Shown here piece by piece: positions 2,917 through 22,739 of a stretch of 55,865 nt of DNA. The notes beneath the pieces are model-generated. The model had not been told where the DNA came from, ran no database searches, and worked only from the letters and a program-made list of their open reading frames with translations. This DNA is from a bacterium (GTDB taxonomy: Bacteria; Verrucomicrobiota; Verrucomicrobiia; Chthoniobacterales; JAFAMB01), in contig JBKPBY010000182.1 in NCBI GenBank assembly GCA_046727075.1, forward strand, positions 1 to 55,865, given 5' to 3'. Each line of letters begins with the position of its first letter. The stretch's first letter is position 1. The position numbers and the translations under genes are program-made.

Positions 2917-5106
2917 ATGACGCTTCGCAACAACCAACAATCGTTCGAACTCAGTTCTCAGTTCAAGCCGCGCGGCGATCAGCAGCACGCCATCGACGAG
3001 CTCGTGAGGTCAATGCAAGCGGGGAACCGGCATCAGACGCTGCTCGGCGTTACAGGGTCGGGCAAAACGTTCACCGCGGCGAACGTTATCGCTGCCTTGA
3101 ACAAACCGACGCTTGTCATCTCGCACAACAAAACGTTGGCAGCCCAGCTTTACAGCGAGTTCCGCCAATTCTTCCCGAACAACGCAGTCGAATATTTCGT
3201 TAGTTATTTCGATTACTATCAACCGGAGGCGTATATCCCCCGGACTGATACGTACATCGAGAAAGATTCATCCATCAATGAAGAGATTGAACGACTTCGT
3301 CTCTCGACTACGACCTCTTTGCTTTCCCGGCCAGATGTCATCGTTGTAGCAAGCGTCTCTTGTATCTATGGGTTAGGGTCACCGGAAGATTACGAAAACA
3401 TGGTTGCCGTCGTCATTCGCGGGCAGCCACTTTCACGTGAGTTGTTCCTGGCGAAGCTTGTAGACATGCTCTACGAGCGGAATGACATCGCGTTCGAACG
3501 CGGAAGATTTCGGGTGCGTGGCGATGTAGTGGAGGTTTTCCCAGCGACATTCGATGAAGAAGCGATTCGAGTAGAATTTTTCGGTGACGAGGTAGAAGCG
3601 ATCACACGATTTGACCCGCTAACCGGTCACGGGAACGAAAGTCTGGATCGGTTTCCTTTTTATCCAGCGAAACAGTTCGTGACTCCCTATGACAAGATGC
3701 AGCGGGCGCTACGTACAATTCGCGAAGAGCTTGATGAACGAATCAAGTGGTTCGAGGCGAACGGTAAACTTCTGGAAGCGCAACGAATCAAGATGCGCAC
3801 CGAATTCGATCTCGAGATGATGCAGGAAATGGGCTTCTGCAGCGGAATCGAGAACTATTCAAGGCATCTGAGCGGGCGCGCACCGGGATCGCGCCCTTAC
3901 ACTCTACTGGATTTCTTCCCAAAAGATTTTTTGCTGGTGGTAGATGAATCGCATGCGACGATTCCGCAGATCGGGGGGATGTACGAAGGCGATCGTTCTC
4001 GAAAAACTGTGCTGGTAGAATACGGATTCCGGCTTCCAAGCGCGCTGGACAACCGTCCTTTGAACTTTCCTGAGTTCATGGAGATGACCAACCAGACGTT
4101 ATACATCAGCGCCACTCCGGCCGAGTTCGAGATCAAGAATAGTGTAGTGGGCAACGCAGGCTACATCCCTCATACTCGCTCACGGATTGGTCAGGAAGAA
4201 ACCGAACCGGTCCTAGTCCCGATGTTGACAGGAAAAGGCTCGGACACTCTTGATGTACACACATCAGGTGCTCGATTGATCATCCAACAAATTATCCGAC
4301 CAACTGGTCTTCTTGATCCGAAGATCACGCTCTATCCGCTTAAAACGCAAATCGATCAGACGATCGAGCTCTGCCGGCAACGCGCGGAACAGGGAGAACG
4401 GGTACTGATTACCACCCTGACGAAGCGCACCGCGGAAGACTTAGCCGATTATCTTCGCGATATCGGATTGAAAGTTCGTTATCTGCACAGCGAGATTGAC
4501 GCCATTGAGCGAGTCGAGATCCTCCGCGCACTGAGAGCGGGCGAGTTCGACATTCTGGTCGGCATCAATCTGTTGCGCGAAGGCCTTGATCTCCCGGAAG
4601 TCAGTTTGGTTTGTATCCTGGATGCCGACAAAGAAGGCTTTCTGAGAAGTCAGACATCGCTCATCCAGACTGCGGGGCGGGCCGCCAGGCACATCAACGG
4701 AGAAGTGGCGCTGTTTGCTGATACCATGACCGATAGCATTCAGAAGCTCATGGCAATCACCGAGTACCGGCGGGCCAAACAGATTGAGTATAACGAGCAG
4801 AACGGGATCACCCCGGCGAGCGTAAAGCGAGCAGTTCAAGAGAGCTTACACATGCTGTTGAGAGGCCGCCAGATCGAAGAATCGGTAGTGCGCGAGAGTG
4901 GGCGCGACTTTAATATCACCGAAGTCTTGCGCGAGTTGGAAGAAGAGATGCAGATGGCCGCCGCCAACCTGGAGTACGAGCGCGCAGCCCTTTTGCGCGA
5001 CCAGATCATGGAGCTAAAGAATGGGACCGGCGAAGCCAAGATCGCGCCGAAACGAAGACCGGTCAGCTATGGTGGACCGAAGAAGCCAGTGCGTAAACGG
5101 CGCTGA
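2917..5106 (+). CDS. uvrB: Excinuclease ABC subunit B
   Basis: GVTGSGKT Walker A, YFDYYQPEAY beta-hairpin, DESH, GINLLREGLDLPEV and C-terminal UVR coil. Confidence 0.98.
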   Translation: MTLRNNQQSFELSSQFKPRGDQQHAIDELVRSMQAGNRHQTLLGVTGSGKTFTAANVIAALNKPTLVISHNKTLAAQLYSEFRQFFPNNAVEYFVSYFDYYQPEAYIPRTDTYIEKDSSINEEIERLRLSTTTSLLSRPDVIVVASVSCIYGLGSPEDYENMVAVVIRGQPLSRELFLAKLVDMLYERNDIAFERGRFRVRGDVVEVFPATFDEEAIRVEFFGDEVEAITRFDPLTGHGNESLDRFPFYPAKQFVTPYDKMQRALRTIREELDERIKWFEANGKLLEAQRIKMRTEFDLEMMQEMGFCSGIENYSRHLSGRAPGSRPYTLLDFFPKDFLLVVDESHATIPQIGGMYEGDRSRKTVLVEYGFRLPSALDNRPLNFPEFMEMTNQTLYISATPAEFEIKNSVVGNAGYIPHTRSRIGQEETEPVLVPMLTGKGSDTLDVHTSGARLIIQQIIRPTGLLDPKITLYPLKTQIDQTIELCRQRAEQGERVLITTLTKRTAEDLADYLRDIGLKVRYLHSEIDAIERVEILRALRAGEFDILVGINLLREGLDLPEVSLVCILDADKEGFLRSQTSLIQTAGRAARHINGEVALFADTMTDSIQKLMAITEYRRAKQIEYNEQNGITPASVKRAVQESLHMLLRGRQIEESVVRESGRDFNITEVLRELEEEMQMAAANLEYERAALLRDQIMELKNGTGEAKIAPKRRPVSYGGPKKPVRKRR

Positions 5107-5188
5107 GGGTTTTCCGTTTTGAGTTGTCGGTTGATAGGACGGATGCGCTGCCGGCGATGTCGGCGCTGTTGGCAATTGACGGCGTTCC
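5107..5188. repeat. Composite heptamer + 9-mer intergenic repeat module
   Basis: Degenerate GGTTTTC heptamers then CGGCGATGT-type 9-mers ending TTGACGGCGTTCC at the permease stop. Confidence 0.7.
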
Positions 5189-7620
5189 TACTCCTCCCTA
5201 AGCGTGTGAATCGGATCGATTCGGATTGCTCGCCGTGCGGGAAGCCAGCTGGCAAGTAGAGCGGTACAGCCGAGGACTCCGATTACTCCAATAAACGTCC
5301 AAGGGTCTGTTGCACCGATACCGTGGAGGAAGCTGGTCAGCAAGCGCCCGAGAATAAAAGCTAACACAATTCCAAATGCGAGACCGATGCCAACCAGCGC
5401 CATTCCTTTGCCGACTACCAACCGGAGTACGTTGGTTCTGGACGCGCCAAGCGCCAAGCGAATCCCGATCTCGCGTGTGCGTTGAACAACAGAATAACCA
5501 AGCACACCGTACAGCCCTATCGCCGCCAGAATCAAGGCAAGGCCGGAAAACAGTCCGACCAGCGTCATCGCAAGATGTTGAGTTTTCAGGCTGTTCGCTA
5601 ACCGCTGATCCATTGTCTGGACATTGAATATCGGAATATCCGGATCAACCGCCTGAACGGCCCGCTGAATGTCAGTAACGTGCGATAACGGGTCGTTGCC
5701 GGCACGAACGATGATAGTCGATATCTGCTCCGGACTCTGCAACACCGGCATGTAGTATTGAACATAGGAAGGTTCAGCGCCGAGGGTGTCATGGATCACT
5801 GTTCGAACCACTCCGACGATCGTGTATTGAGTTCGCTGGCCGGTGCGTGCGTTATCATTAAGCTGTTTGCCGATTGGGTCTTCGCCGGGGAAAAACCGGT
5901 TTGCGAATCGTTCGTCAATAATCACGACTGCCGGTTTATCGAGTGTGTCCTCAGCGTTGAAAGTACGTCCGCGGACTAACTCATTTCCCATAGCGCGAAA
6001 ATAATCCGGCGAAACCGTCGAATACTGTGCGGATGGCGCTTCCCCTGGTCTGGGATCCGGACGACCCGTAATCGCAAAATCGTTCGTCCAAGTGTCGCCT
6101 CCGAAAGGGAGATTGAGGCCGAATGCGACCGAGCGAATGCCAGGCAAGGCCTGGAGTTTCTGTTGGAGCTGTTGATAGAACAGCGCCATTTCTGTCTTTT
6201 TGGGAGGCTGGCCCGGTTCGTTTCGATATTTTACGCCGGCCAATTTGATATCGACGGTCGCCAGGTTGTGAGGATCGAAGCCGAGTGGAATCATTTGAAG
6301 CGCTCGAAAGCTTTGGACCAGCAGGCTAGCGCCGACCAAAAGCGCGCATGCCAGTGCCACTTGCCCAATCACGAGCGAGCTCTGACTTCGCTGATGTTGT
6401 CTTCCAGTTGTGCCTGATTTACCTCCCGCATTCTTCAGAGCATCGCCAGCATTCGACATGTTCCAGGCGGGAATCAAGCCGAAGAAAATGCCGGCAAGGA
6501 GACTGATCGTCCCGGTGGACAGAATCACTGACCCGCTCAAATGAAGTTCTTGAAATCGGATTGTACCTTGAGGCGCGATTGTTTTGATCAAATCCATGCT
6601 CCAGAAGGCAAGAAGAAGTCCAAGCAGCCCGCCGCACAGTGCCAGGCCGACGCTTTCGATCAAAAGCAAGCCGATCAATTGCGGTCTGGTCGCCCCTAGT
6701 GCCGCGCGCACTGCTATTTCTTTGCGCCTCAACATCGACCGACTGAGCATCAGGTTCGCTACATTGGCGCAAGCAATGAAAAGCACCGCCAAGACTACCG
6801 CTGCCAGCAGGAAGAGCGTAGGCCGATACATTCCGACAACCCGCTCGATCATCGGAACCACTTTCAGGCTGAAGCCGGTGTCGGTGTCTGGATACTGTGA
6901 TTCCAGATTTCGGCAAATCACATCGAAATCTGCTGTCGCTTGCGCCGTCGAAACTCCGGGACGCAGACGTCCGATTGCTCGGATCCCAGGATGGCTGCCT
7001 CTTTCAGATAGCGGGGGCCGGTCCGACATCGGCCCGAAAGTGACATACAGGTCGGTGTTCTCCGGCGTTACGTTCCGGGCCGAAGCCACACCGATAACTT
7101 CATAGCTGATGTCGTTAAAGACCAGTTTTCGGCCAATGATGTTGGGATCAGCGCCAAACCGTTTCTTCCAGAGTTTGTTACCCAGAATAACGACTGGCTC
7201 CGAATCTTTTCGATCGTCTGCTTCCGAAAAGACTCGACCGAGTTCGGGACGAAGACCCAGCACAGAAAAGTAACTCGCGGTAACATACGCGCCTCTGAAG
7301 CGTTCCGGTTCTTTGTCGCCTGTCAGGTTAAAATGATCCGTGCGATAGGCAGCGATATCGATCAATGACCGCTGATTCGCCCGCCAATCTAGGTAGTCCG
7401 GGTACGCCACAGCCATTTCTGGATATTGTGCGGACGTTTGCTGCAGCTCCACCAGCCGACTGGAATCCGGATACGGCAGCGGTTGCAGGAGTACCGCATC
7501 GATCACACTGAAGATCGCCGTGTTCGCACCGATCCCAAGCGCCAGTGTCACAATCGATGTGACCGTAAATGCCGGGCTCTTGCTGAGAGCACGAAAAATG
7601 AAACGAATATTCGAAAGCAT
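5188..7620 (-). CDS. ABC transporter permease, duplicated MacB/FtsX (ADOP-like), copy 1
   Basis: 810 aa; TLALGIGANTAIFS, ACANVANL, EIAVRAALGA, REIGIRLALGA and C-terminal PARRA..IDP..LREE. Confidence 0.93.
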   Translation of the reverse strand: MLSNIRFIFRALSKSPAFTVTSIVTLALGIGANTAIFSVIDAVLLQPLPYPDSSRLVELQQTSAQYPEMAVAYPDYLDWRANQRSLIDIAAYRTDHFNLTGDKEPERFRGAYVTASYFSVLGLRPELGRVFSEADDRKDSEPVVILGNKLWKKRFGADPNIIGRKLVFNDISYEVIGVASARNVTPENTDLYVTFGPMSDRPPLSERGSHPGIRAIGRLRPGVSTAQATADFDVICRNLESQYPDTDTGFSLKVVPMIERVVGMYRPTLFLLAAVVLAVLFIACANVANLMLSRSMLRRKEIAVRAALGATRPQLIGLLLIESVGLALCGGLLGLLLAFWSMDLIKTIAPQGTIRFQELHLSGSVILSTGTISLLAGIFFGLIPAWNMSNAGDALKNAGGKSGTTGRQHQRSQSSLVIGQVALACALLVGASLLVQSFRALQMIPLGFDPHNLATVDIKLAGVKYRNEPGQPPKKTEMALFYQQLQQKLQALPGIRSVAFGLNLPFGGDTWTNDFAITGRPDPRPGEAPSAQYSTVSPDYFRAMGNELVRGRTFNAEDTLDKPAVVIIDERFANRFFPGEDPIGKQLNDNARTGQRTQYTIVGVVRTVIHDTLGAEPSYVQYYMPVLQSPEQISTIIVRAGNDPLSHVTDIQRAVQAVDPDIPIFNVQTMDQRLANSLKTQHLAMTLVGLFSGLALILAAIGLYGVLGYSVVQRTREIGIRLALGASRTNVLRLVVGKGMALVGIGLAFGIVLAFILGRLLTSFLHGIGATDPWTFIGVIGVLGCTALLASWLPARRAIRIDPIHTLREE

Positions 7621-7759
7621 GGAAGGAGTGTTGGTGCTAGTTAGTTTTCAGTTTTCGGTTTTCAGTTTTCCGTCTTCGTCTGGCGAAGGTCTGACTAGGG
7701 CGGACAGCTCAGTTTTCAGTTGCCGGCGGTGTCGACGATGTTGGCATTGACGGCGTTCC
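7621..7759. repeat. Composite intergenic module (hexamer, heptamer, REP-like, heptamer, 9-mer)
   Basis: gagtgttggtgctagt / gttttca gttttcg gttttca / ccgtcttcgtctggcgaagg..gcggacagctcag / cggcggtgtcgacgatgttggcattgacggcgttcc. Confidence 0.8.
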
Positions 7760-9834
7760 TATTCCTCTCTCAGCGCTTTGATCGGGTTAATTTTCATGGC
7801 GCGGCGTGCGGGGAAATAGTTGGCTAAAAGCGCAACGATAGTGACGACGATTGCTACGCCGGCCAATGTTGCAGGATCGGTGAAACTAACTCCGTAGAGG
7901 AACGCGCCTAACAATCTTCCTATCCCTAGAGATAGCAGCAATCCGATTACGATTCCGATCGCAACGATCTTCATGCCGCTGCCGATCACCAAACGAAGGA
8001 TATCTCTTGATCCAGCGCCGAGCGCGATGCGAACCCCATACTCGTGGGTGCGCTGGGCGACGCTATAGGAAATGACTCCATATAACCCGAATGAGGCGAG
8101 CAAAAGAGCGGCAGCGGCGAAGCTGGCGACCAAACCCATCACGAATCGCCGGTTTGAAAGGGTGTCGCCCACCAGGTTGTCAATTGTCTTGATATCTTGC
8201 ACCGGCATCTTCGGGTCTGTCTTACGAATTGCGTTCCGCAGACCGACGATCAGGCTGTTCCCATCGAGATCGCCGGCCCCGCGGACAATCACCCCGAACG
8301 CCGAATCCATCATGTCACCTGCGCCTAACCGCACCTTAAGCTTAACGGGATCAAGTTAATTAAACCGGCCGATTGGATTCCTGGTTCCTGTTGAAGATTT
8401 TCCCGAAGCCGTTTGGCAAACTGGGCGAAATCATCGTCTCCTGGATAGGTTGTGTTCGGCAAAGTCAGCCGGGCGGTAAGTATCTTGTCCGGCGCGGACA
8501 TCCCTGTATTGGTGCGCTCAAGCACCAGAAAAGAGTGGAGAAGCAGACCAGTACCACAAAGCATGACAACCGATCCGACGACTTCAAGGAGCACCAACCC
8601 GTCCTGGAGCACCCTATGTGAGACGCTTGACCCGGCGCGGTTTATCTCCCGCAATGGCGTTTGCAGGTCTGCGCTGGCGTGACTGACCAGTCTTCGTGCT
8701 GGTAAAAGACCAGAGAGGAGCCCGCTCAGCAGCGCAAGCGCCAGCGTGAAAACGAACACCGTACCATTCAGCGAAACCGGTGACGCTTTCGGTATGTAGC
8801 TCGCGCCAATCTTCAGAAACAGGTCCAGCAAAAACATCGCTACCAGGCATCCGACAAATCCTGCAATTAGGCCGATAAGGGTCGTTTCCAGAATAAACTG
8901 GCCGATTAAATGCCAGCGCCCTGCTCCCAAAGCCGTGCGAATCGCGACCTCCCGCAGACGCGACGAACTGCGGCTAAGGATCAAGTTGGCCAGATTGATG
9001 CAAACGATCAGGGTCAGGCAGCCGACGATGCCAAACAGGAAAACCAGCTGGCTTCTCCGATATCCAGTTAGTGCCTCGGTCAGCGGAACAAGGTGCGTAC
9101 CGAACGGATTGTTGTACTCTTTGGCCATTGCCTGGGAGATCGCTGTCATTTCCGCCTGAGCGTTTGCCAAAGCCACTCCTGGCTTCAACCGTGCGATCGC
9201 CGTCCATCCGCGAATGCTTCGCGATTGCAGATCCGCCTTAGTGAACACGACCGGAATCCAGCAATCGACCGCCAAACTACCTGGCATGAATTGCCCGGAC
9301 GTCACCCCGACCACTTCATAGCGAAGTCCGTCCAGCATGATTTTTCTGCCGAGGAGTTGATGATCTCTCGAAAATTGTCTGGTCCAGAAGTCCTCGCTGA
9401 GTATGACAGCCGCTTCTGCGGCCGCACCGTTGTCGGAACGAAATGTTCGCCCCAGCACCGGCCTGGCGCCGATTACATCGAAGAAATTCGGCAACACAGT
9501 TTCAGCATTTATTTCCCTTGGCTCATCCCCGGATTGAAACGCGAATCCCATGTCCCAGCCCGCGGTTATGCTTTCGAAACACTGATTCCGCCTTTGCCAG
9601 TCGAGGAAATCCGCCGCTGAGGTCGGCACGACCTCGCGCCTATCCATGATCGTATCGATCTTCACCAGACGGTCCGGATCCTGGAATGGCAGCGGACGCA
9701 TCAAGACTGAGTCGACGATAGCAAACATCGCAGTGCTTGCGCCGATCCCAAGAGCTAGTGTCAGGAACCGCCACAAGCGTGAAGCCGGGAGATTTCCAGA
9801 GGAGGCGGATGGCGTAGCGAAGCGATGAAAACAT
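7759..9834 (-). pseudogene. ADOP-like permease copy 2, disrupted (frameshift near 9770 and deletion/frameshift near 8335)
   Basis: Three ORFs (9640-9834, 8325-9776, 7759-8334) give consecutive parts of one permease; about 110 aa of the second periplasmic domain are missing relative to the paralogs. Confidence 0.85.
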
Positions 9835-9852
9835 GGGATGAGTGTTGGCAGG

Positions 9853-9900
9853 GCTGAGCTTCCGACGTCGCCAAGGCTTTGTCGGACACGTCAGCTCAGC
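9853..9900. repeat. REP-like palindrome, TCCGACGTCGCCAAGGCT family
   Basis: GCTGAGCT-TCCGAC-gtcgccaaggcttt-GTCGGA-cacgtc-AGCTCAGC; further copies at 16526, 25957, 32694 and 49411. Confidence 0.8.
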
Positions 9901-9924
9901 CTCGTGCGTGTGGCAGGGCCTATA

Positions 9925-10038
9925 GGTTTTCGGTTTTCAGTTTTCGGTTGGTGGGACGTATAGGACGTATACGACCGATGCGACGTATAGGACCTATCGG
10001 TGTCGGCGTAGACGGCGATTTTGGCATTGTCGGCGTTG
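9925..10038. repeat. Heptamer + TATAGGACG 9-mer + CGGCG 9-mer composite module
   Basis: ggttttc/agttttc run, then gggacgtat aggacgtat.. aggacctat, then tgtcggcgta gacggcgat tttggcatt gtcggcgtt. Confidence 0.8.
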
Positions 10039-10039
10039 A

Positions 10040-12493
10040 TCACTCCTCTCTCAGTGCCATGATTGGGTCAATCTTCATGGCTCTTCGGGCCGGCCACCAG
10101 CAGGCGAAGAAGGTTGTTGCTAGCAGGGTCATCACAACGATGAGCACAACGCTCGGGTTGCTCGGCTCAAGGCCGTAGAGTGAAGTTGTGAGAAATCGGG
10201 CGACTATTCCGGCAAGGATTAGTCCAATCATGAGCCCGATACCGACGACGCTCATTCCGTTCCAGAGAATCAGACGGAAAATTTTGGCGCGGATCGCGCC
10301 GAGTGCGATCCGGATACCGATCTCGCGTGTCCGGCGAACCACCGAGTAAGCGAGCATTCCATAGAGGCCGACTGCAGCAAGTACGAGAGCAATCGTGGAG
10401 AACAGGCCGACCAGTGTCATCGCCAGCCGTTGTGTCGATAGCCGTAGCGAAATCGCTTGCTCCATGCTCTGTACCTCATAAAGGGGAACCCTGGTATCGA
10501 ACGACTGTACGACCTCGGCTAACGAATGAATCAGTGCGCGTGGATCGCTGTCACTGCGAAGCAGGACAGAGACATAATTGTTGGGCGCTTGGGCGATCGG
10601 GCGATACGATAGCGCGATTTTTCGTAGGCCTGTTCCTGGTTCCCGATGTTCGACGACAGGGACAATGCCAATGATTGTCCAGGTGTGGGGGTCGGTACCG
10701 GTCTCATGAATCTGTTGGCCGATTGGGTCCTGACCAGGGAAAAATTCTTTGGCAAACGCCTCATCGACAATTGTCACTCGTTCTCTGCCAAATCGATCCT
10801 GCTCGTTGAATCCTCGTCCACGCAGGATCGGGATACGCATCGTTTCGAAATAGCTTGGCGAAACAAACTGTTCTTCCGAAGAAAGTTCTTCTCCGGGCTT
10901 GGGATCAGGGCGTCCAACAATCCCGAAAAAGAATTCCCAATCGCTGCCTCCAAACGGAGCATTGATGGTCAGCGCAGCAAAACGCACCCCGGGAATAGCC
11001 GCAGCTTTTGCTAGCACTTGATCGAGAAATCCAGCTAACTCGTTTTGTTTCGGTTCGGGTGAATGTTCGGTGCCATATCGCGATTCCGGCAGCGCGATGC
11101 CTGCCATCAGAAGACGATGCGGGTCGAATCCGAGATTGGCGGTTTGCAGCGTGCGAAAACCATCAACTAACAAAGCGGATCCGATCAGGACAATGCTGGC
11201 GATCGCGACTTGAGCCAGAACAAGCACGCCTTGCGCACGTTGCCGATCGCGGCTGGTTGTACCTCCATGCGCTCCGGTATTTTTGAGGCTACTGCCAAGA
11301 TCAGCCCGAGAGATTTTCCAGGCTGGGAACAGACCGAACAGGAGCCCGGTGCACACGGTTATGATGGCGGTGAACCCGAGCACCGGCGCATTGATGCGAA
11401 TGTTCTGGAACCTGACTGACTCCTGAGGCGCAAGAGAAATGATCGCGTCAAGACTCCAGAACGCGAAGATCACTCCGAGAACGCCACCTCCTAAAGCGAT
11501 CAGCAGACTCTCGGTCAGCAGTTGGGCCATGATCCGCCGGCGGCCCGCTCCCAGAGCGGTTCGCAGCGCGATCTCTTTCTCCCGACTCGCGGCTCTGGCC
11601 AGCAGCAGATTTGCCACATTTGCGCAACAGATTAGGAGAACAAACCCGACTACTGCGAATAACACATTTAACGTCTCGCGATACTTTTGAACCGTCGCAT
11701 CCAGGAGTAAACTCATCGATATCCGTGCCTGCGAGTTTGTTTCCGGGTACCGTGTCTCAAGGTTCCGGCTGATTATGTCGAATTCAGCTCGTGCCTGATC
11801 GATGGAGATCCCGTCCTTCAAACGGCCGATTACTTTTAGGCCGGGATGCGAATCGCGGCTGGTCAGCGGAAGCTGGCTAGCAACCGGACCGAATGGAACA
11901 AACAAAGCGATCGAAGCGGGATTACCAATCCCCCTTGATGGAATGGCGTTTTGCGGCGCGACACCAATAATCTCGTAGTTCACCTCATCCAGAGTCACCG
12001 TTCTACCGATGATTCCGGGATCAGCCCCAAAACGCCGGCGCCAGAATTGTTCTGTAAGGATCGCGACATGCGCGCCGCTGTCGCGATCTTCGTTATCGGT
12101 AAAGCCGCGTCCGGGGCTAATAGTAACTCCAAGTACACGGAAATAGCTGGCGCTCACATAGACGGCTTGGGCACGTTCCGGATCACCGTCATCCTTTAGG
12201 TTGAAACTGTCTCCGCGATAGATCGATATTTCTTGAAAGGAGCGCTGGGTTGCGCACCAATCCAGATAATTCGGATAGGCAACGGACATGGTGCCGAAGC
12301 TTTGGCGTCGTTCTTCAATGTTAACCAATCGATCCGGATCGTGATAGGGTAACGCCTGCAACAGCACAGCATTCACCACGCTGAACACCGCAGTATTAGC
12401 TCCAATGCCAAGAGCGAGAGTCAGAACCGCGGTGATAGTAAAAGCTGGGCTCTTGCCTAAAGTGCGGATAGCGAATTTGAGATCGGAGACCAT
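10040..12493 (-). CDS. ADOP-like ABC permease copy 3
   Basis: Same motifs as copy 1; start placed at MVSDLKFAIR because the upstream ORF extension is translated repeat sequence. Confidence 0.92.
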   Translation of the reverse strand: MVSDLKFAIRTLGKSPAFTITAVLTLALGIGANTAVFSVVNAVLLQALPYHDPDRLVNIEERRQSFGTMSVAYPNYLDWCATQRSFQEISIYRGDSFNLKDDGDPERAQAVYVSASYFRVLGVTISPGRGFTDNEDRDSGAHVAILTEQFWRRRFGADPGIIGRTVTLDEVNYEIIGVAPQNAIPSRGIGNPASIALFVPFGPVASQLPLTSRDSHPGLKVIGRLKDGISIDQARAEFDIISRNLETRYPETNSQARISMSLLLDATVQKYRETLNVLFAVVGFVLLICCANVANLLLARAASREKEIALRTALGAGRRRIMAQLLTESLLIALGGGVLGVIFAFWSLDAIISLAPQESVRFQNIRINAPVLGFTAIITVCTGLLFGLFPAWKISRADLGSSLKNTGAHGGTTSRDRQRAQGVLVLAQVAIASIVLIGSALLVDGFRTLQTANLGFDPHRLLMAGIALPESRYGTEHSPEPKQNELAGFLDQVLAKAAAIPGVRFAALTINAPFGGSDWEFFFGIVGRPDPKPGEELSSEEQFVSPSYFETMRIPILRGRGFNEQDRFGRERVTIVDEAFAKEFFPGQDPIGQQIHETGTDPHTWTIIGIVPVVEHREPGTGLRKIALSYRPIAQAPNNYVSVLLRSDSDPRALIHSLAEVVQSFDTRVPLYEVQSMEQAISLRLSTQRLAMTLVGLFSTIALVLAAVGLYGMLAYSVVRRTREIGIRIALGAIRAKIFRLILWNGMSVVGIGLMIGLILAGIVARFLTTSLYGLEPSNPSVVLIVVMTLLATTFFACWWPARRAMKIDPIMALREE

Positions 12494-12604
12494 GGGATGA
12501 GTGTTAGTGCTAGTCGGCTTTCCGTCTTCAGTTCCGCCTTGTGTTTTCGGTTCTCGGTTTTCGGTTGTTGGCGCTGACGGCGATGGTGGCATTGACAGCG
12601 TTGC

Positions 12605-12922
12605 TCATGCTTCCCTCCTGAGTGCGACGACGGGATCAATTCGAGATGCTCGATGAGCGGGAAGCCAAAGAGCGATCAGTGCAACAATTGTTAGTAGGAT
12701 AGTGACTGTTAGTAGTGTAGGGATGTCGGTTCTTCCCAACGCACTTAAGCGACCTCCGAAACGGCTCATCCAAAGGTCGTAACTGATAATCGCAACGGAG
12801 CGGCTACCAGGCTCGTTGTCCCCTGGCCCGAAGTTGCGCCCTACCACCGGCTCCATTCGGAGGACGTTAAACAGTTTCGATGACAGCAGCGTGCGGATGG
12901 AGAATTTGACGTCGGATAGCAT
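12605..12922 (-). pseudogene. Miniaturised ADOP permease (N-terminal, internal and C-terminal fragments fused in frame)
   Basis: MLSDVKFSIRTL + FNVLRMEPVVGRNF..VAIISYDLWMSRFGG + TD..LLTIVALIALWLPAHRASRIDPVVALRRE each match paralog segments. Confidence 0.8.
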
Positions 12923-12991
12923 GGGGGAGTGTGAGTGCTATTCGGTTTCCAGTTTTCCGCCTTCGTCTGGCCAAGGCCGGACTACGGCACG

Positions 12992-13744
12992 CTAGGTCCG
13001 CAGTTCTTCTTCCAGTTGACGTTCGCGTTCTTTGTCTTCGACGACTTTTCCGTCGAACAAATGGATGGTGCGTTCGGCGTAGCCGGCGAAGCGGCTGTCG
13101 TGGGTGACCATGCAGATTGTGGCTCCGCCTTGGTGCAGGTCTGCTAGCAGCTCCATCACTGCGTCGCCGTTTTTGCTGTCGAGGTTACCAGTCGGCTCGT
13201 CGGCGAGCAGGACCGAAGGCGAGCCGGCAAGCGCACGCGCGACCGCTACGCGTTGCTGTTGACCACCACTCAATTGGTTCGGGAAATGTTTCTGGCGATG
13301 TTGCATCCCTACTCTCTCCAGCGATTCGATTGCGCGCCGTTTGCGTTCTACGCCCCTGACCTCTGATCGGTAAGTGAGTGGTAACTCAACATTTTCCAGG
13401 ACTGTCAGATCGCCAATCAGATTGAAACTCTGAAAGATGAAGCCGATTTCCCGATTCCGGATCCTGGCGCGTTCAGCAAACGAGAGACTTTCTACCTGGC
13501 GCCCGTTCAATAGATACTGTCCGCCAGACGGGGAATCGAGCAGCCCCAGAATGGAAAGCAACGTTGATTTACCACACCCGCTCGGTCCAGCAATGGCTAC
13601 ATATTCGCCGGAATAAATATCTAGATAAATCCCGTCCAGCGCATGCGTTTCAACTTCATCAGTTAGAAAAACTTTCTTTACGTCGCACAGGTGAATCAGG
13701 GACGCTTGCTGTTCGTGTGTAGTAGGGGTTTCGGGTGAGTTCAT
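12992..13744 (-). CDS. ABC transporter ATP-binding protein (MacB/LolD family)
   Basis: GPSGCGKST, LSGGQQQRV, LLADEPTGNLD and VTHD. Confidence 0.96.
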   Translation of the reverse strand: MNSPETPTTHEQQASLIHLCDVKKVFLTDEVETHALDGIYLDIYSGEYVAIAGPSGCGKSTLLSILGLLDSPSGGQYLLNGRQVESLSFAERARIRNREIGFIFQSFNLIGDLTVLENVELPLTYRSEVRGVERKRRAIESLERVGMQHRQKHFPNQLSGGQQQRVAVARALAGSPSVLLADEPTGNLDSKNGDAVMELLADLHQGGATICMVTHDSRFAGYAERTIHLFDGKVVEDKERERQLEEELRT

Positions 13745-13799
13745 TTGAGTCCGAGCGCTGGTGCTAGTGTGAGTTGTTATCAGTTATCAGTTTTCAGTT

Positions 13800-13949
13800 T
13801 CAGTTTTCAGTTTTCAGTTTTTTGGTTCCGGCACTTTCACTCATCAGGAATTCGAGGACTTGAGCGGTTAGAAGAAGGGGGTTATACGCGTCGTCGGACG
13901 AATTAAGGAAGTCTAGATCTGGATCGTTAACATTCGGAGCGTTGTTCAT
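13800..13949 (-). CDS. Putative 49 aa small protein
   Basis: Manual translation MNNAPNVNDPDLDFLNSSDDAYNPLLLTAQVLEFLMSESAGTKKLKTEN*; same strand as the operon and fills the unique sequence between repeat blocks. Confidence 0.35.
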   Translation of the reverse strand: MNNAPNVNDPDLDFLNSSDDAYNPLLLTAQVLEFLMSESAGTKKLKTEN

Positions 13950-14052
13950 TCTGGTAGGACACGGACTGCTTGAAGAAAGTTACAGACACGTTTGGTTTTC
14001 AATTTTTCAGTTTTCGGTTCGTGCTAGTACTAGCGCTCGCACCAGCACTCTC

Positions 14053-16485
14053 TCATTCTTGCCGGAGGGCGATTGTGGGATTGATTTTCATCGCGCGGCG
14101 AGTGGGGAGGTAGTTTGCGACCAGACTTACGAGCATCAGCAAGACAATGACCCCTGCGAAAGTGACAGGGTCAGTCGCGCCGATACCATAAAGTAAGCTC
14201 TGCATCAGCCGGGTTAATCCGATGGAAACAACTGCACCGATTAGGACTCCTGCTAAGACCAGGCGTGTACCGTCTGTCAAGATCATTCGCAACACATCGA
14301 ACCTCTGAGCACCCAATGCCATCCGAACGCCGATCTCGCGTGTGCGTTGGAGGACTCCATAAGAGATTAACCCATACAGGCCTATTGCGGCTAAAAGCAG
14401 TGCGACGGCGGCAAAGCTGCCGATCATCCAGAGGTTCGCTCGGCGGTCGCCGACCGAATCGGCGATCAGATTCGACCACAGGCTTACTCGTGAAAGTGGA
14501 ATCTGGGGATCAACCTCTGCGGTGGCCCTTCTGATGGGCGCAACGAGAGTGAGCGGATCAATCGAGTCATTCGCGCGGACAACAAGGACCATGTTTTGCG
14601 CCCAGCTTTCACCTGGTCCGGAAGTTGGCGATTGAGCAACCGGAAAATAAAACTCGTCTCGTGTCGGTTCACCAAGGCGCTGAGGACTTACGTCGCCGAC
14701 AACGCCGACAATTGTAACGGACAGGTTGACATCAAGGTTGAGCCTATGACCAATCGCGTTCTCAGCGCTTTTCCAGTAACGAAGCGCCATTGAGCGATTA
14801 ATTAAGATCACACGTTGAGCGCCGGCAGTGTCGCGGGCATCGAGGAAACGGCCAGCAAGCAATGGGATGCCGGCAGTCTGGAAATATTCGCCACTGATCG
14901 CTCGGAGCTGGGCGACAGGTTGTTTCCCATTTTCGAAAGCTGATCTTCCCTCGATCTGGAAACTAGTGTCATTGTCACTCCGAGTAAGTGGCAGCAAGCC
15001 GATTGCTCCGGCTGACTTTACGCCGGGCAGAGTAGCGATGCGTTCCTGAACAGCACGATAAAAGGTATAGACCGATTCATCTGACGAGTAGCGGTTTGGT
15101 GGTAAAGCAATCGAACCGGTCAGAACTCTCTCCGGGGCTGCTATACCAGTGCTGGATTCTTGCAGTTTTAGAAATGACCGGAACAAGAGTCCGGCGCAGC
15201 TGAGAACAATCAAAGCGCACGCGATTTCCGCAATTACCAGGACGTTGCGAAGATATCCCTGACGCCCACCACCCACTGTTCCGCGCGAGCTTTCGGCCAA
15301 CGCTGACTGCAAATCGACATTACGCCTTCGCGAGATAGTGATGAGCGGCAGTGATCCGGACACAATGCCGACCATCGTTGAAAGAGCGATCGTAAAAGCG
15401 AGTACGCCAAAATCAATTCTGACCTCGGATGCACGGGGGAGATTTGTGCCTGCGATTGATACGAAGAGGTCGGTGCCAAACAACGAAAGGAGTACGCCAC
15501 AGATTCCGCCAATGGCACTTAACAAAATGCTCTCAGCGAGCAGTTGCTTGGCCAGATTCCAACGGGTGGCGCCCAGCGATACCCGGATGGCCAGCTCTCT
15601 CCGCCGACCTGCGATACGAGTCAACAACAGGTTCGCGAGGTTTAGCGCGGCGATCAGAAGCATACAGCCGACGGCTGCCTGAAGAAGGAACAGCCCGGCC
15701 CGCTGATTTCCCACCATGTCTTCCTGAAACGGGATCAAACGTATGCCGAATCCGCTATTGTCGTCCGGATACTTCAAAGCGAGAGTCGCTGCAATACTGG
15801 ACATCTGGGCCTGAGCCTGATTAACAGCTATACCCGGCTTCAACCTGCCAATGATGTAAGCAAGCCTGTACCCACGGCTTTGCAGTTTGCTCTTCGTGAA
15901 GGTGTACGGGATCCATAGCTCCACTCTTTCGGTCGGGAGCCGAAAATCATCCTGCATAACACCAACGATGGTGTGGCTTTCGCCGTTTAGCTGGACAGTG
16001 CGGCCGAGGATTCCTTCGGATTGACCAAAAAGGCGGCGCGCTAGCCTGGCACTAAGAATCGCAACATGATCTCTGCCGGCCTGATCTTCTCCCATTTCGA
16101 ATCCGCGGCCAGAACGAGGGCTGACGCCGAGCAAATGAAAATAATTGGCGGAGACAGTTGCACCTTCGATGCGTTCGGCTCCTTCGTTTCCTTGCAGTGC
16201 GATGCCTCCGTCCCGGTAAGCGGCCAACTCTGAAAATACGGTGTTTCGTTCTCTCCAGTCGAGAAAGTCTGGCGCGGATACGTTCGACAACGGCCAGTTC
16301 GGTTCCCATGTCGACCAGACGCGCATCAGCTGTCCTGGCTGAGCAACAGGCAAAGCGCGAACCAGCACGGCATTGATCACGCTGAAGATTGTCACGTTGG
16401 CTCCGATGCCGACGGCGAGCGTCAACACGGCCACCAGTGTGAACGCCGGAGAGCTGCGAAGAGAACGGACCGCGTAGCGGAGCAT
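14053..16485 (-). CDS. ADOP-like ABC permease copy 5 (first in the transcript)
   Basis: 810 aa; TLAVGIGANVTIFS, NLANLLL, ELAIRVSLGA and REIGVRMALGA. Confidence 0.93.
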   Translation of the reverse strand: MLRYAVRSLRSSPAFTLVAVLTLAVGIGANVTIFSVINAVLVRALPVAQPGQLMRVWSTWEPNWPLSNVSAPDFLDWRERNTVFSELAAYRDGGIALQGNEGAERIEGATVSANYFHLLGVSPRSGRGFEMGEDQAGRDHVAILSARLARRLFGQSEGILGRTVQLNGESHTIVGVMQDDFRLPTERVELWIPYTFTKSKLQSRGYRLAYIIGRLKPGIAVNQAQAQMSSIAATLALKYPDDNSGFGIRLIPFQEDMVGNQRAGLFLLQAAVGCMLLIAALNLANLLLTRIAGRRRELAIRVSLGATRWNLAKQLLAESILLSAIGGICGVLLSLFGTDLFVSIAGTNLPRASEVRIDFGVLAFTIALSTMVGIVSGSLPLITISRRRNVDLQSALAESSRGTVGGGRQGYLRNVLVIAEIACALIVLSCAGLLFRSFLKLQESSTGIAAPERVLTGSIALPPNRYSSDESVYTFYRAVQERIATLPGVKSAGAIGLLPLTRSDNDTSFQIEGRSAFENGKQPVAQLRAISGEYFQTAGIPLLAGRFLDARDTAGAQRVILINRSMALRYWKSAENAIGHRLNLDVNLSVTIVGVVGDVSPQRLGEPTRDEFYFPVAQSPTSGPGESWAQNMVLVVRANDSIDPLTLVAPIRRATAEVDPQIPLSRVSLWSNLIADSVGDRRANLWMIGSFAAVALLLAAIGLYGLISYGVLQRTREIGVRMALGAQRFDVLRMILTDGTRLVLAGVLIGAVVSIGLTRLMQSLLYGIGATDPVTFAGVIVLLMLVSLVANYLPTRRAMKINPTIALRQE

Positions 16486-16645
16486 TGGGGGTCAGTGCTA
16501 GTGTTAGTGTTGCCAGGGCTTGGAATCCGACGTCGCCAAGGCTATGTCGGACAGATCAGCTCAGAATCGTGGGCGTAGTAGCTTCAAAGGGTTTCGGTTT
16601 TTCAGTTCACGGCGATCACGGCGTTCTCGTGCGTTCCCGGCGTTG
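16486..16645. repeat. Composite module with hexamers, REP-like copy (16526-16564), heptamers and 9-mers
   Basis: cagtgctagtgttagtgtt / tccgacgtcgccaaggctatgtcggacagatcagctcag / ggtttcggttttttcag / cacggcgat cacggcgtt. Confidence 0.8.
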
Positions 16646-18016
16646 TCAACGGAGCCTGATGCGTTCCTGGTTATCGTAAGCGCTGGTGTCGGAGAGGATC
16701 ACCTGGTCTCCAGGTTGCAGGCCTGATCTGATTTCAATTGCGTTCACGGAACCGCGCCCGAGTGCGACTTTGGTCCGCACGGCTTCGTTAGCATCCGGTG
16801 TAAGCTTAAAGAGCCCAATGGTGCTTTCGTCCTGACCAAAGGCAGGGCGCCCGACATAAATGACATCGGTTAGCCGTTCGAGCTCAATGGTACCTTCAAC
16901 TCCGAGATCCGAACGCACGGTTTTCGGCAAGACCTTCTCGCCGAAGCTTACATCAACCAGCACGGTGCCTTGCTGGACTGCCGGGTCAACTCGCGAGACC
17001 TTCCCGGGTACGATCCCACTTGTTCGTGTATCGATGCTGGCTGATTCACCAATTTTGATATCGCGCGCTTGTGTCTCTGCGATTTTGATCTGTGCTTTCA
17101 GTTTCATCGGGTCGGCGACCCGGGCCAGGTTGGTTCCGGCTGTTACCTGTTGTCCGACAGCCACTGCGATCTGCTGAAGAACTCCTTTCATTCCTGCCCG
17201 CACCTGAAGAGCATCGACTTGGCTATGTTTCAAGGCAGCCAGCGCTTTCGCTTGGTCCAGATCGCTCTGCGCAACGGCAAGCTGCGGTTCAATCGCTTGC
17301 TGGGTAAAATCATAACGCTGTTTTTCAATGTCAAAGGAGGCGGCCTTTTCGCGCGCGGTGATCTGCGATTTTTTCAGATCGAGTGCTGCGATTAATCCTT
17401 CTTTGGCCAGTCGCTCGTTTACGTCGCGCTCGGCGTTTGCCGCGTCGCTCTCCCCTTCTGCCTGGGTCAAAGCAGCCCGGCGTTCAAGCGCTTGCCCTTG
17501 TAGCTGCGCTCTCAGGTTAACCAGTCTGGCCTGAGCGCTTGTCACCGCCGCATCAGCGTCCAAAGCAGCTTGCTGCAATTCAGGGTTGGTCAGCGTGAGG
17601 ATGACGGTATCGGCATTCACTTCTGTTCCCGGCCAGATAATAATTTTGTCTACTCGCGCGTCGTTGCGGGCAGCGATCCAGCTAATGTCTTCGGGAACCA
17701 ATGTCCCTAGACCGCGCACCTGACGCAAAAGCGGTCCTCGTTTCACCGTGTCGATCCAGACCGAGTTGCGCGCGACCGTTGGCAACGCGGGCTTAAGTTG
17801 GGCAAGTCCAATCGTGATCGCCACAAGCCCAACAACGGCAGCACCACCGATCATTATCCGGCGCCGGAGCTTGCGCGCTTTTACACCGGTACGGAGGACA
17901 TCCATATTGGAGGATTGATTCGCGACCGAAGGTCGGTTCTCTTTCAGAGATGGATTCTCTGTTGGAGACTGTTTCTCCGTCGCGTGATTACCGGTGAAGT
18001 TTCTTACACGGTTCAT
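16646..18016 (-). CDS. Membrane fusion / periplasmic adaptor protein (HlyD/MacA family)
   Basis: N-terminal TM anchor, VKRGPLLRQVRGLGTLVP, coiled-coil hairpin and EIRSGLQPGDQVILSD; exact start uncertain. Confidence 0.9.
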   Translation of the reverse strand: MNRVRNFTGNHATEKQSPTENPSLKENRPSVANQSSNMDVLRTGVKARKLRRRIMIGGAAVVGLVAITIGLAQLKPALPTVARNSVWIDTVKRGPLLRQVRGLGTLVPEDISWIAARNDARVDKIIIWPGTEVNADTVILTLTNPELQQAALDADAAVTSAQARLVNLRAQLQGQALERRAALTQAEGESDAANAERDVNERLAKEGLIAALDLKKSQITAREKAASFDIEKQRYDFTQQAIEPQLAVAQSDLDQAKALAALKHSQVDALQVRAGMKGVLQQIAVAVGQQVTAGTNLARVADPMKLKAQIKIAETQARDIKIGESASIDTRTSGIVPGKVSRVDPAVQQGTVLVDVSFGEKVLPKTVRSDLGVEGTIELERLTDVIYVGRPAFGQDESTIGLFKLTPDANEAVRTKVALGRGSVNAIEIRSGLQPGDQVILSDTSAYDNQERIRLR

Positions 18017-18041
18017 CGTTGCTTTTCGATCGTTGTTGCTA

Positions 18042-18293
18042 TCAGGCCTTCGGAGGGAGCGAGTGCGAACAGGCGACCACGGATTGCTGGCTTGTGCCAA
18101 ATCCAGTCGTTACTGATTGCTTCGCACTGATTCCGATCGACACGAGCGAGCAGATCGCCAGGAGCAGGAAGACCAAAACATCGGGCTGGCGTCGGGCACC
18201 TTCCGTGGGCAATGGCTTGGCGATCGACCGGCGCTGCGCGTTTAGCGGGAACTCGATCACTACATTGTCAGCAACTGGATTCATAGTTTTCAT
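18042..18293 (-). CDS. Small single-TM hypothetical protein, first gene after the sigma54 promoter
   Basis: AAAGGA-like RBS before ATG 18293; hydrophobic VLVFLLLAICSLVSIGI segment. Confidence 0.55.
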   Translation of the reverse strand: MKTMNPVADNVVIEFPLNAQRRSIAKPLPTEGARRQPDVLVFLLLAICSLVSIGISAKQSVTTGFGTSQQSVVACSHSLPPKA

Positions 18294-18322
18294 TGGTTGT
18301 CCTTTCACGGGAAAAGGATAGG

Positions 18323-18338
18323 GCAAGTCCCATGCCAA
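18323..18338 (-). promoter_or_regulatory. Sigma54 (-24/-12) promoter
   Basis: Minus strand TTGGCATGGGACTTGC has GG-N10-GC and matches the TGGCAC-N5-TTGC consensus; next to a sigma54 activator gene. Confidence 0.8.
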
Positions 18339-18354
18339 CCTTTTTCCAGTTACG

Positions 18355-18367
18355 TAAGTGATTGAAA
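18355..18367 (-). promoter_or_regulatory. Possible IHF site
   Basis: TTTCAATCACTTA resembles WATCAANNNNTTR and lies between the promoter and the enhancer-like sites. Confidence 0.45.
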
Positions 18368-18413
18368 AACAGCATCTTATGCGAAATCGCTATTTTCACC
18401 CATCATTGAATGC

Positions 18414-18449
18414 GTCTCATCGAGAGACCTGTCAGTCTCAAAATGAGAA
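18414..18449. promoter_or_regulatory. Tandem palindromic upstream activator sites (putative bEBP enhancer)
   Basis: GTCTC-ATCGA-GAGAC (18414-18428) and TCTCA-AAA-TGAGA (18436-18448); centres 21 bp apart, about 85-105 bp upstream of the -24. Confidence 0.65.
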
Positions 18450-18540
18450 TCGAGCAGCATCGAGCGGACGGCCGCGGTTCCAACACCTCCAGATCCGTCG
18501 CCTCGAGGGCGTTCTTGAGTGCACGGGCGTGCGGCTCGCC

Positions 18541-19983: not shown

Positions 19984-19993
19984 GGGGAAGGAA

Positions 19994-20096
19994 ATGCCAA
20001 CATCGCTGTCAATGCCAGCAATGCCAACAACGAAGATAGTTTCCTCGAAATTCCTTGGTTGATGGCATTGTCGGCGATGTCGGCGTTGTTGGCATG
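19994..20096. repeat. Inverted pair of 9-mer arrays (long imperfect hairpin)
   Basis: ATGCCAACA..GTCAATGCCA.. faces ..TGGCATTGTC..TGTTGGCAT between regulator and kinase. Confidence 0.7.
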
Positions 20097-21494: not shown

Positions 21495-21509
21495 TCATGC
21501 ACCTGAGAG

Positions 21510-22703: not shown

Positions 22704-22739
22704 GAGGATGAGGATAGCCGGGCTCGCAGCGCGGCTGTC

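Follow-up and report, generated by a model that had tools for sequence, protein, structure and literature searches.

Ordered repeat modules between ADOP permease genes of a Chthoniobacterales bacterium are probably unpaired arms of four-helix-bundle gene cassettes

Intergenic tandem arrays of short words are known from several bacteria. Rehm et al. (2015, PMC4692102) described the heptamers GGGAATC of Xanthomonas and GGGGA(C/T)T of Nostoc. According to the accessible part of that paper, these obey a mirror rule (antisense ahead of a start, sense following a stop), form 70-75 inverted pairs and vary in array length between species, with no function identified there; its supplement shows a GGGAATC array spanning the start codon of XCC0516. 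The intergenic TAACTGA repeats of Beggiatoaceae are described in the accessible part of MacGregor (2015, PMC4679880). Two further systems combine repeats with a gene: the ORF-bearing intervening sequences of 23S rRNA (S23p/PF05635/TIGR02436; Coxiella; PMC4990558), and the REP, BIME and REPtron elements (Di Nocera et al. 2013, PMC3733652).

The window analyzed here is a stretch of 55,865 nucleotides (contig JBKPBY010000182.1, assembly GCA_046727075.1, the genome called G000 below). Its permease array resembles the known MacB-type ABC exporter operons with duplicated ADOP permeases (TIGR03434) in having MFP and ATPase genes in the operon and three intact permease genes of about 800 aa above the 622-bit cut-off, at 934, 917 and 895 bits; the other two of its five permeases are broken. 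The spacer modules are 9-mers (N9a and N9b, which are left-type arms, and Y9), and a heptamer (H7) and a hexamer (X6), which are right-type arms, these terms referring to the gene cassettes described below. On the mRNA, every arm in the window is rich in A and C.

5113-5132, minus: degenerate H7 units, adjoining the convergent uvrB stop
5150-5186, minus: N9a array (AACGCCGTC/AATGCCAAC type), left-type arm, 1 nt past the permease-1 stop
5188-7620, minus: ADOP-family duplicated ABC permease 1, intact, 810 aa (TIGR03434 934 bits)
7627-7636, minus: X6 module (AGCACC/AACACT), right-type arm before the ATG
7643-7721, minus: H7 array (AAAACYG), right-type arm, split by a REP-like palindrome (7673-7706)
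7722-7757, minus: N9a array, 4 units
7759-9834, minus: ADOP permease 2, pseudogene (early frameshift and internal deletion of ~370 nt against the G001 orthologue)
9840-9888, minus: REP-like palindrome (9862-9888), then hexamer (9840-9849)
9925-9949, minus: H7 array
9954-9997, both orientations: Y9, a 9-mer block of GTCCTATAC type
10002-10037, minus: N9a array, 4 units
10040-12493, minus: ADOP permease 3, intact, 817 aa from the ATG at 12493
12494-12604, minus: spacer with N9a (12567-12602), H7 (12543-12566) and X6 (about 12500-12512)
12605-12922, minus: collapsed ADOP remnant of 105 codons (permease start, internal piece and end)
12923-12991, minus: spacer with REP-like palindrome (about 12951-12988), degenerate H7 and X6 (12928-12940)
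12992-13744, minus: MacB/LolD-type ABC ATPase
13745-14052, minus: spacer with an inverted hexamer pair at its ends (about 14021-14052 and 13750-13772), H7 arrays (13999-14019 and 13776-13821) and a 49-codon ORF (13800-13949)
14053-16485, minus: ADOP permease 5, intact, 810 aa
16486-16645, minus: spacer with N9b (AACGCCGGG type, 16605-16644), H7 (16594-16607), REP (16527-16553) and X6 (16494-16512)
16646-17905, minus: RND-type periplasmic adaptor (MFP), TIGR01730 above cut-off
19984-20096, no strand assigned: complete inverted N9a pair (hairpin) in the response-regulator/histidine-kinase spacer, fold z -6.4

Read on the minus (mRNA) strand, all six spacers named in the earlier note contain ordered modules as it had claimed, with corrections in detail. 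Spacer 7621-7758 runs from four 9-mer units through two heptamers, a REP-like palindrome and three to four more heptamers to the hexamer and the ATG. The order in 9835-10039 is four 9-mers, the Y9 block, three heptamers, the palindrome and the hexamer; in 12494-12604 it is four 9-mers, three heptamers and the hexamer, with no palindrome; and in 16486-16645 a 9-mer of a different subfamily is followed by two heptamers, the palindrome and the hexamer. The 9-mer begins 1-2 nt past the stop, and the hexamer stops 5-8 nt short of the ATG. The palindrome lies between heptamer and hexamer, as described, in 9835-10039 and 16486-16645, but inside the heptamer array in 7621-7758. Spacer 5107-5187 has the 9-mer but is convergent with uvrB and has neither hexamer nor ATG, while 12923-12991 has the palindrome, as its first module, and the hexamer but no 9-mer. 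Spacer 13745-14052, omitted from the earlier note, reads reversed hexamer, heptamer, small ORF, heptamer, hexamer. The Y9 block was likewise absent from its list of modules.

The central spacers are no artefact of assembly: an independent soil contig covers 9594-15396 and differs from the window by 14 substitutions and 12 gap letters. The modules are enriched in the array beyond chance. The hexamer precedes 6/6 permease and ATPase starts and the 9-mer follows 5/7 stops (counted by eye), against 43 with a hexamer array in the 40 nt ahead of the start and 15 with a 9-mer array in the 40 nt past the stop among 2843 genes called with a custom hexamer-based caller whose starts are approximate; both counts include the array's own genes. 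Genome-wide there are 13 junctions from 9-mer to heptamer, and none in the reversed control.

The modules are not specific to the permease array. The Chthoniobacterales-like genome of this soil bacterium carries hundreds of intergenic 6-10-mer arrays made of over 20 word families, several of which can share one spacer; period-7 rows with a score of at least 35 number 262 in intergenic and 20 in genic sequence. Among 447 stop-side arrays, 22% lie within 5 nt of the stop, against 6% in a rough null. Start-side arrays mirror the polarity of stop-side arrays in a ratio of 133:6, and array polarity is set by the side of the spacer, not by the mRNA strand. Inverted same-family pairs occur in 75 of 158 multi-array spacers and direct pairs in 6. 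When polarity was learned from pairs only, single arms stood on their own side 172:41, and a left arm preceded a right arm 29:2. The genome-wide scan thus refuted random order and orientation and revealed positional bias, for which a DNA-level explanation is available: the order in the permease spacers follows from arm polarity in a genome-wide repeat class, and the stand-alone RNA grammar of the earlier note dissolves. What stands genome-wide of the claimed module order is left arm before right arm; a fixed heptamer-before-hexamer rule was rejected, the count outside the array being 5:3. At least one unrelated operon (C192) has also acquired the full order of 9-mer, heptamer and hexamer.

These arrays share with the GGGAATC and TAACTGA heptamers their abundance as intergenic tandem arrays near gene ends with an orientation bias. 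Like TAACTGA, H7 is oriented toward starts, and one TAACTGA unit lies within 13776-13821. However, AAAACYG is not the same word as the published heptamers, and the window words lack G3 tracts.

Genes flanked by the same repeats, a search for which the earlier note proposed, include small four-helix-bundle (TIGR02436) genes between inverted arrays. The intact cassette consists of a left array, an A/T-rich leader, a TIGR02436 or GxxExxY gene and a reverse-complement array. In G000, 4/6 four-helix-bundle matches and 3/3 GxxExxY matches lie between inverted arrays; across the order, inverted arms flank 14/22, 14/21 and 12/19 full-flank loci, versus 2/150 ordinary small genes. For each tandem module of the window, the same genus contains an intact cassette with a matching arm. 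N9a words match cassette L185 and, at the site in relative G001 orthologous to the G000 cassette C38, the arm of C18, while N9b matches the arm of C38 itself. X6 words stand on both sides of L048, H7 words downstream of L056 (whose upstream side is cut off), and Y9-like words form an inverted pair around the four-helix-bundle gene L067 in G002. Judged from these matches, the words and polarity of the unpaired arms are those of inverted arrays flanking small four-helix-bundle genes; arm polarity in the window is that of the intact cassette, in which the left arm is read inward from the gene on its left. Word families are specific to protein clades: GTT/AAC-core heptamers accompany the P0001 clade and AGTG/CACT-core words the P0002 clade across genera and unrelated loci, and N9 words occur with 7/8 closest relatives of the C38 protein.

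Like the 23S intervening sequences, these cassettes hold a four-helix-bundle passenger between terminal inverted repeats, are sporadically distributed and show gene decay. They differ in standing between protein-coding genes and in having arms built of tandem word arrays. The window spacers, flanked by protein genes and not in a 23S rRNA helix, differ further in having no gene and mostly no pairing. The accessible parts of Rehm et al. and MacGregor draw no link to four-helix-bundle clades, to which several families are traced here, and a literature search outside subscription journals turned up no published connection between flanking inverted word arrays and genes of the four-helix-bundle or GxxExxY type.

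The window spacers likely hold relics of such elements, not cassettes. An inverted same-family pair is absent from the six named spacers and present at 13745-14052, at 19984-20096 and in relatives, and blastx against 105 passenger proteins found no passenger gene or remnant in the window spacers. Candidate passenger remnants among 60 array spacers were rejected: the sole matches, weak ones in three G001 alignments, were to a repeat-derived protein tail. The passenger was deleted and the arms retained at three sites (C137 of G000 against L059, C57 against L075, and C98:2427); alignments of L048, L050, L062 and L069, which have no comparable upstream flank, did not enter the count of empty sites. 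Among 101 fillers of inverted pairs, three are gene-deleted remnants and three more contain whole genes; 65 of the 75 testable fillers are unique, their A/T content does not exceed that of controls, and relics of the A/T-rich leader show no excess. Because so few fillers are gene-deleted and most are unique, gene deletion is not established as the main route to arms. One gene-less composite of arms and filler exists in about 10 near-identical copies at unrelated sites.

The arrays turn over between congeners. In relatives the orthologous spacers have words of their own, which vary between genera and frequently form complete inverted pairs; in the ADOP array of G029 an intact four-helix-bundle gene lies between inverted arms. 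Across 178 spacers with flanks 87% identical, 47/96 G000 arrays and 68/115 G001 arrays have no counterpart in the orthologous spacer, the G001 sample being 618 kb of about 3.9 Mb, made up of contigs with H7 or passenger matches and therefore biased upward in its share of array spacers. The G001 permease array nevertheless has the full 9-mer, heptamer and hexamer order in at least four spacers, with changed units. Plain descent with gene duplication was rejected as a source of the pattern: the permeases are indeed diverged, as the earlier note had it (34-48% amino-acid identity), yet orthologous spacers turn over at 86-94% protein identity.

The protein cores have their nearest relative in other genomes in 27/30 cases and in the same genome in 3/30, whereas the nearest neighbour lies in the same genome for 16/30 upstream flanks and 14/30 coding ends (last 45 nt), about 9% being expected in each case. 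Downstream flanks give a weak signal (8/30), with mean scores equal within genome and within genus. The contrast between cores and upstream flanks points to local copying: paralogue ends and flanks appear to change together while protein cores stay diverged. For known ADOP operons we found no published report of such homogenised ends and flanks. For one N9a arm in four, a better match lies outside the array, and the segment at 9840-9888 shares 85% identity over 66 nt with 16506-16571.

We consider the spacers probably to be patchworks of unpaired arms, which are likely cassette relics and have likely spread between neighbouring permease spacers through gene conversion. The process would begin with cassettes of the form described, with clade-specific words, followed by loss of the passenger with the arms staying in place, as at the three sites above. 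Further deletions, probably at shared AAC/ACT microhomologies, may have fused an outer left arm to the right arms of other elements; because arm polarity is fixed, the product would read 9-mer first and heptamer and hexamer last. The conserved first and last codons of tandem ADOP paralogues, together with the arms, could then act as homology anchors, as the nearest-neighbour patterns suggest, and one genome's arm set would thereby spread along the array. The recombination anchors offered among the functions in the earlier note come close to this. REP-like palindromes would insert independently, slippage would alter unit numbers, as seen in near-identical strains, and the arms may be mostly neutral to the host: with a Shine-Dalgarno-like word at only 249/1308 starts (19%), the genome would tolerate G-poor arms ahead of the ATG. 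Several observations fit this less comfortably. The order kept in G001 and its recurrence in C192 could be explained equally by selection, the arms also adjoin the non-paralogous ATPase, MFP and regulator genes, the commonest words of a genome would by themselves produce part of the within-genome flank likeness, no X6-clade protein was found in G000 or G001 at E 1e-20, and passenger remnants are absent from the window spacers and rare among the pair fillers.

That the arms are live binding sites of cognate four-helix-bundle proteins (Avd-like pentamers), several acting on the DNA or mRNA of the permease operon, is unlikely. The idea draws on the tracking of protein clades by word families across genera and unrelated loci, on a weak match of P0002 to DGR Avd (E 6.6e-5, below cut-off), and on its sole PDB match, XCC0516, the gene with the GGGAATC array over its start codon in the supplement cited above. 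Co-inheritance of gene and arm yields the same pattern, however; moreover, no X6-clade protein was found at E 1e-20 in G000 (70% complete) or G001 (87% complete), and the only H7 cognate in these two genomes lies in G000, 5'-truncated and with other arms. A wider proposal is less likely than not: four-helix-bundle (Avd-like) proteins may be sequence-specific nucleic-acid binders that recognize clade-specific 6-10-nt words and spread or maintain gene-less arms without a transposase. GGGAATC and TAACTGA would then be cassette footprints, and permease arrays sinks in which arms are stacked into a combinatorial address and homogenised with the gene ends. On the cassette-relic reading, every tandem module of one spacer becomes assignable to a four-helix-bundle clade, which gives matched protein-word pairs with mismatched controls, and the published unexplained intergenic heptamer repeats would be tied to the same family, including the solved XCC0516 protein.

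A selected RNA cassette for processing, stability or translational coupling, as the earlier note proposed, is quite improbable. Strong local enrichment, the fixed phase to stop and start and the order kept in G001 speak for it, as does the fact that A/C-rich arms leave the start region unstructured where Shine-Dalgarno use is low; such a role is proposed for start-proximal TAACTGA arrays in the accessible text of MacGregor. The polarity, however, is mirrored rather than fixed to the mRNA strand, and within co-directional spacers the words are about as frequent in antisense (sense:antisense 13:16 for the 9-mer, 18:17 for the heptamer and 39:26 for the hexamer). Divergent (109/411) and convergent (99/346) spacers are as rich in arrays as co-directional ones (301/1206). 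The permease spacers fold no better than shuffles (z -1.9 to +0.8; 0/7 array spacers significant against 100 dinucleotide shuffles each), while z falls to -8 in spacers of relatives; neither sequence nor fold is common to relatives, both being absent in G004, G006 and G037. Paired arms show no excess of G·U over A·C on the mRNA strand (53:44 and 17:24), Rfam gave no match in 5000-21800, and a pseudogene or remnant borders 4/6 named spacers. We see no sign of a dedicated RNA cassette, nor are the arrays random slippage.

Very improbable is the proposal that repeated arms and homogenised gene ends are kept for gain, loss and reshuffling of permease units by recombination. Array content does vary, G000 having a remnant where G001 has an extra permease and ATPase (the ATPase-permease interval of G001 contains no ADOP remnant like 12605-12922), and it varies among relatives too. 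Near-identical soil contigs differ in X6 unit number in 12494-12604, one contig fuses 7647 to 7709 and so lacks the REP-like insert of the heptamer array, and others take different forms near 12509-12992. Most of these joints, however, have short sides or unknown letters between them, and those with sides under 30 letters, including 7757-10040, were left out. The deletion ends of both remnant and pseudogene lie within coding sequence, not in arms, and rearrangement does not show selection for rearrangement. Independent polymerase slippage with coincidental order is hardly credible and was rightly discounted in the earlier note: it could account for changes in unit number and the unfixed order of H7 and X6 outside the array, but not for the mirror polarity, the excess of inverted over direct pairs, or clade-specific words around one gene family.

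The optional palindrome looks like a member of the REP family. We inspected 60 of its 73 core matches in G000, which are intergenic, imperfect palindromes of 20-40 bp; many carry CCGTAG, found in only one of the four window copies (at 12978). G000 (70% complete) has only one match to the Y1 transposase (PF01797), with an internal stop. The arrays themselves resemble REP, BIME and REPtron elements as dispersed intergenic repeats with an autonomous gene-plus-repeat form, many gene-less copies and composite clusters, but their arms are tandem arrays rather than palindromes of 20-40 bp, and the gene that goes with them does not encode a tyrosine transposase. The inverted pair at 19984-20096 is the paired form of the N9a arm, and other families stand at that position in G001.

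On the minus strand, the mRNA strand of the permease array, the genes run in the order sigma-54-type response regulator, histidine kinase, RND-type periplasmic adaptor (MFP), duplicated ABC permease (ADOP, TIGR03434) 5, ABC ATPase, a 105-codon ADOP remnant, ADOP 3, ADOP 2 (a pseudogene) and ADOP 1, which uvrB faces. ADOP 2 is frameshifted early in its sequence and is missing ~370 nt relative to both its orthologue in the congener G001 and a soil contig. The source genome (G000; 3.1 Mb, 265 contigs) is 70% complete; the named relatives of the window MFP protein are from Chthoniobacterales and other Verrucomicrobiota, and the sequencing runs containing the window sequence are soil metagenomes. 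The permeases are clearly diverged (34–48% pairwise identity), as the earlier note had stated, and the word modules that it had placed in their spacers were located there, with some corrections needed:

Modules of the permease spacers, minus strand
N9: 9-mer, subfamilies N9a (AACGCCGTC/AATGCCAAC) and N9b (AACGCCGGG)
H7: heptamer AAAACYG
X6: hexamer AGCACT/AACACT
Y9: extra 9-mer block in spacer 9835-10039, in both orientations and not named in the earlier note, GTCCTATAC
REP: optional REP-like palindrome

X6 and N9 are strongly enriched in the array: X6 precedes 6 of 6 starts there versus 43 of 2843 called genes genome-wide, and N9 follows 5 of 7 stops versus 15 of 2843. Near-identical soil contigs vary in X6 unit number and in a REP insert at 7647-7709. 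The palindrome is a separate dispersed REP-like family, comparable to that in PMC3733652.

We consider it probable that the tandem word modules are unpaired arms left over from four-helix-bundle cassettes, their order set by arm polarity and their sequences homogenised across the tandem permease array. A cassette here is a four-helix-bundle (TIGR02436) or GxxExxY gene bracketed by inverted word arrays (arms), and filler is the DNA between paired arms. Cassette arms would have been left unpaired in the permease spacers, with polarity placing the left arm N9 first and the right arms H7 and X6 last; turnover would be fast, and local conversion would homogenise the arms along the array.

In G000, 4 of 6 TIGR02436 matches and all 3 GxxExxY matches are enclosed by inverted arrays of a single family; the remaining two TIGR02436 matches are truncated or one-armed. 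Across 300 genomes of the order, the best-scoring loci of three four-helix-bundle clades, where flanks are full, have inverted arms in 14/22, 14/21 and 12/19 cases, against 2/150 for ordinary 300–450-nt genes. Arm words track protein clades: GTT/AAC-core heptamers accompany the clade whose member in G002, of the same genus, carries H7 downstream (L056), AGTG/CACT-core words accompany that whose G002 member carries X6 on both sides (L048), and N9 words occur at 7 of the 8 relatives closest to the protein on G000 contig C38. Within cassettes the upstream arm is made of N9 and the downstream arms of H7 and X6, the same order as in the window. Between C38 28398-28805 and the orthologous site on G001 contig C18 (L185), the four-helix-bundle proteins are ~68% identical and the neighbouring operon proteins mostly 86–97%. 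The arm subfamily is N9b at C38 versus N9a in G001, where the arm resembles window N9a; a cassette swap or fast protein-word co-evolution is possible.

A gene-deleted version of G001 cassette L059, on G000 contig C137, still has the two arms, the leader and the gene's two ends, and C57 is a similar counterpart of L075. Such remnants account for just 3 of 101 pair fillers, and the majority of fillers are unique, which counts against a simple gene-deletion story. One gene-less element is repeated:

Composite repeat: ~330 nt, with CCGCAGATT arms, 98-nt filler and extra flanks; G000 contig C211, ~5290-5620, and ~10 other contigs

It occupies ~10 unrelated sites at 95–99% identity, so such DNA gets copied around; it appears to be a MITE-like, recently copied unit.

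The solved structure closest to the X6-clade protein is XCC0516, the four-helix-bundle pentamer 2gsc; row 27 of supplement file 2 of PMC4692102 has a GGGAATC array overlapping the start codon of Xanthomonas XCC0516. PMC4990558 and PMC10053308 link the family to 23S rRNA intervening sequences and to DGR Avd, respectively. A literature search, at the level of paper listings, turned up no description of the gene-plus-arms cassette. By eye, an A/T-rich leader, often with ATAAC...GTTAT-like words, separates the left arm from the start codon of four-helix-bundle and GxxExxY genes (L043-L076, L129-L198), and could act as a promoter or operator common to them. At G000 C6 6233-6499, a four-helix-bundle gene without its 5' end and left arm is directly convergent with its neighbour.

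Tandem Repeats Finder gave 262 intergenic period-7 and 189 period-9 rows genome-wide. Among arrays ≤40 nt from a gene end, N9 orientation (sense:antisense) was 14:3 after stops and 0:13 before starts; X6 gave 8:32 and 45:7, and H7, like X6, 5:18 and 13:1. In a motif-free test (635 of 1123 arrays), stop polarity predicted mirror polarity at starts 133:6, a symmetry common to most word families. The 158 spacers with at least two arrays include 75 with an inverted same-family pair and 6 with a direct pair, and array frequency is not lower in divergent and convergent spacers. With arm polarity learned solely from pairs, lone arms lay on their own side 172:41. A left arm stood ahead of another family's right arm 29:2; mixtures of this kind were counted in 27 spacers, some being N9 or X6 subfamily pairs. 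Of the module order described in the earlier note, left before right holds genome-wide, in a mirror-symmetric pattern; H7 precedes X6 by just 5:3 outside the permease array. The full order occurs once more in the genome, in an ABC operon on contig C192, presumably of oligopeptide type. The N9-to-H7 junction, with which an intact N9 arm naturally ends on its inner side, occurs 13 times; ten copies lie elsewhere than in the array (2 sense, 2 antisense, 3 convergent, 2 divergent and 1 at the edge of a contig). The mirror rule is shared with the Xanthomonas GGGAATC arrays of PMC4692102 (Rehm et al.), where a function was not found; TAACTGA arrays near starts are described in PMC4679880 (MacGregor).

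An MFP-ATPase(-ADOP) operon is present in eleven relatives. In G009, G010, G020, G021, G024 and G029 many of the spacers consist of inverted pairs built from other words, each genome reusing its own along its array; these often fold strongly (z down to -8.4), with 6 of 18 tested weaker than -2. In G029 an intact four-helix-bundle gene separates the ATPase from ADOP. Besides this cassette, just 3' of the MFP gene (L040), its operon includes a GxxExxY-like ORF together with two ATPase genes. The G004, G006 and G037 operons have no arrays of this kind. G001 retains N9-H7-X6 in four spacers, mostly with N9b; after MFP a reversed X6 replaces N9, and the regulator/kinase spacer carries other families. 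Genome-wide, about half of arrays (47/96 and 68/115) are absent from the congener's orthologous spacer. Among 33 intact ADOP genes, 30 are in genomes with at least two; of these, 3 protein cores had their nearest neighbour within their own genome, as did 16 upstream flanks, 8 first-45-nt, 14 last-45-nt and 8 downstream flanks (~9% expected). The flank signal owes something to the fact that each genome favours the words most common in it. For 3 of 4 window N9a arms, the best match among 3792 spacer ends was an array mate. We read the repeated grammar as fast turnover with local conversion, the latter of which we infer.

The proposal of a functional RNA or DNA cassette is partly supported. At the RNA level, no array spacer folded better than shuffles or matched Rfam, and in paired arms G·U was not in excess on the mRNA strand (53:44; 17:24). 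Relatives share the presence of some arm, not its sequence or structure. An unstructured A/C-rich region ahead of Shine-Dalgarno-less starts may be tolerated or mildly useful, and an SD-like word precedes just 249 of 1308 starts. The arms may also be bound by putative cognate four-helix-bundle proteins, though searches of G000 and G001 yielded no protein of the X6 clade.

A 49-codon acidic ORF lies between ADOP 5 and the ATPase (13800-13949, minus strand). It is kept in G001, where codons 22-43 show 9 synonymous changes and a single non-synonymous one, is present in 2 of 41 genomes, both of the source genus, and has no NCBIfam match; it may encode a genuine small protein belonging to the exporter operon. 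Inside the histidine-kinase ORF, at its 3' end, 7.4 copies of the 10-mer CGATGCCGCT (18575-18649), a family frequent in spacers, lengthen that ORF. At 22730-22935, upstream of a TPR gene, an inverted H7 pair with arms ~130 nt apart is mostly replaced in G001.
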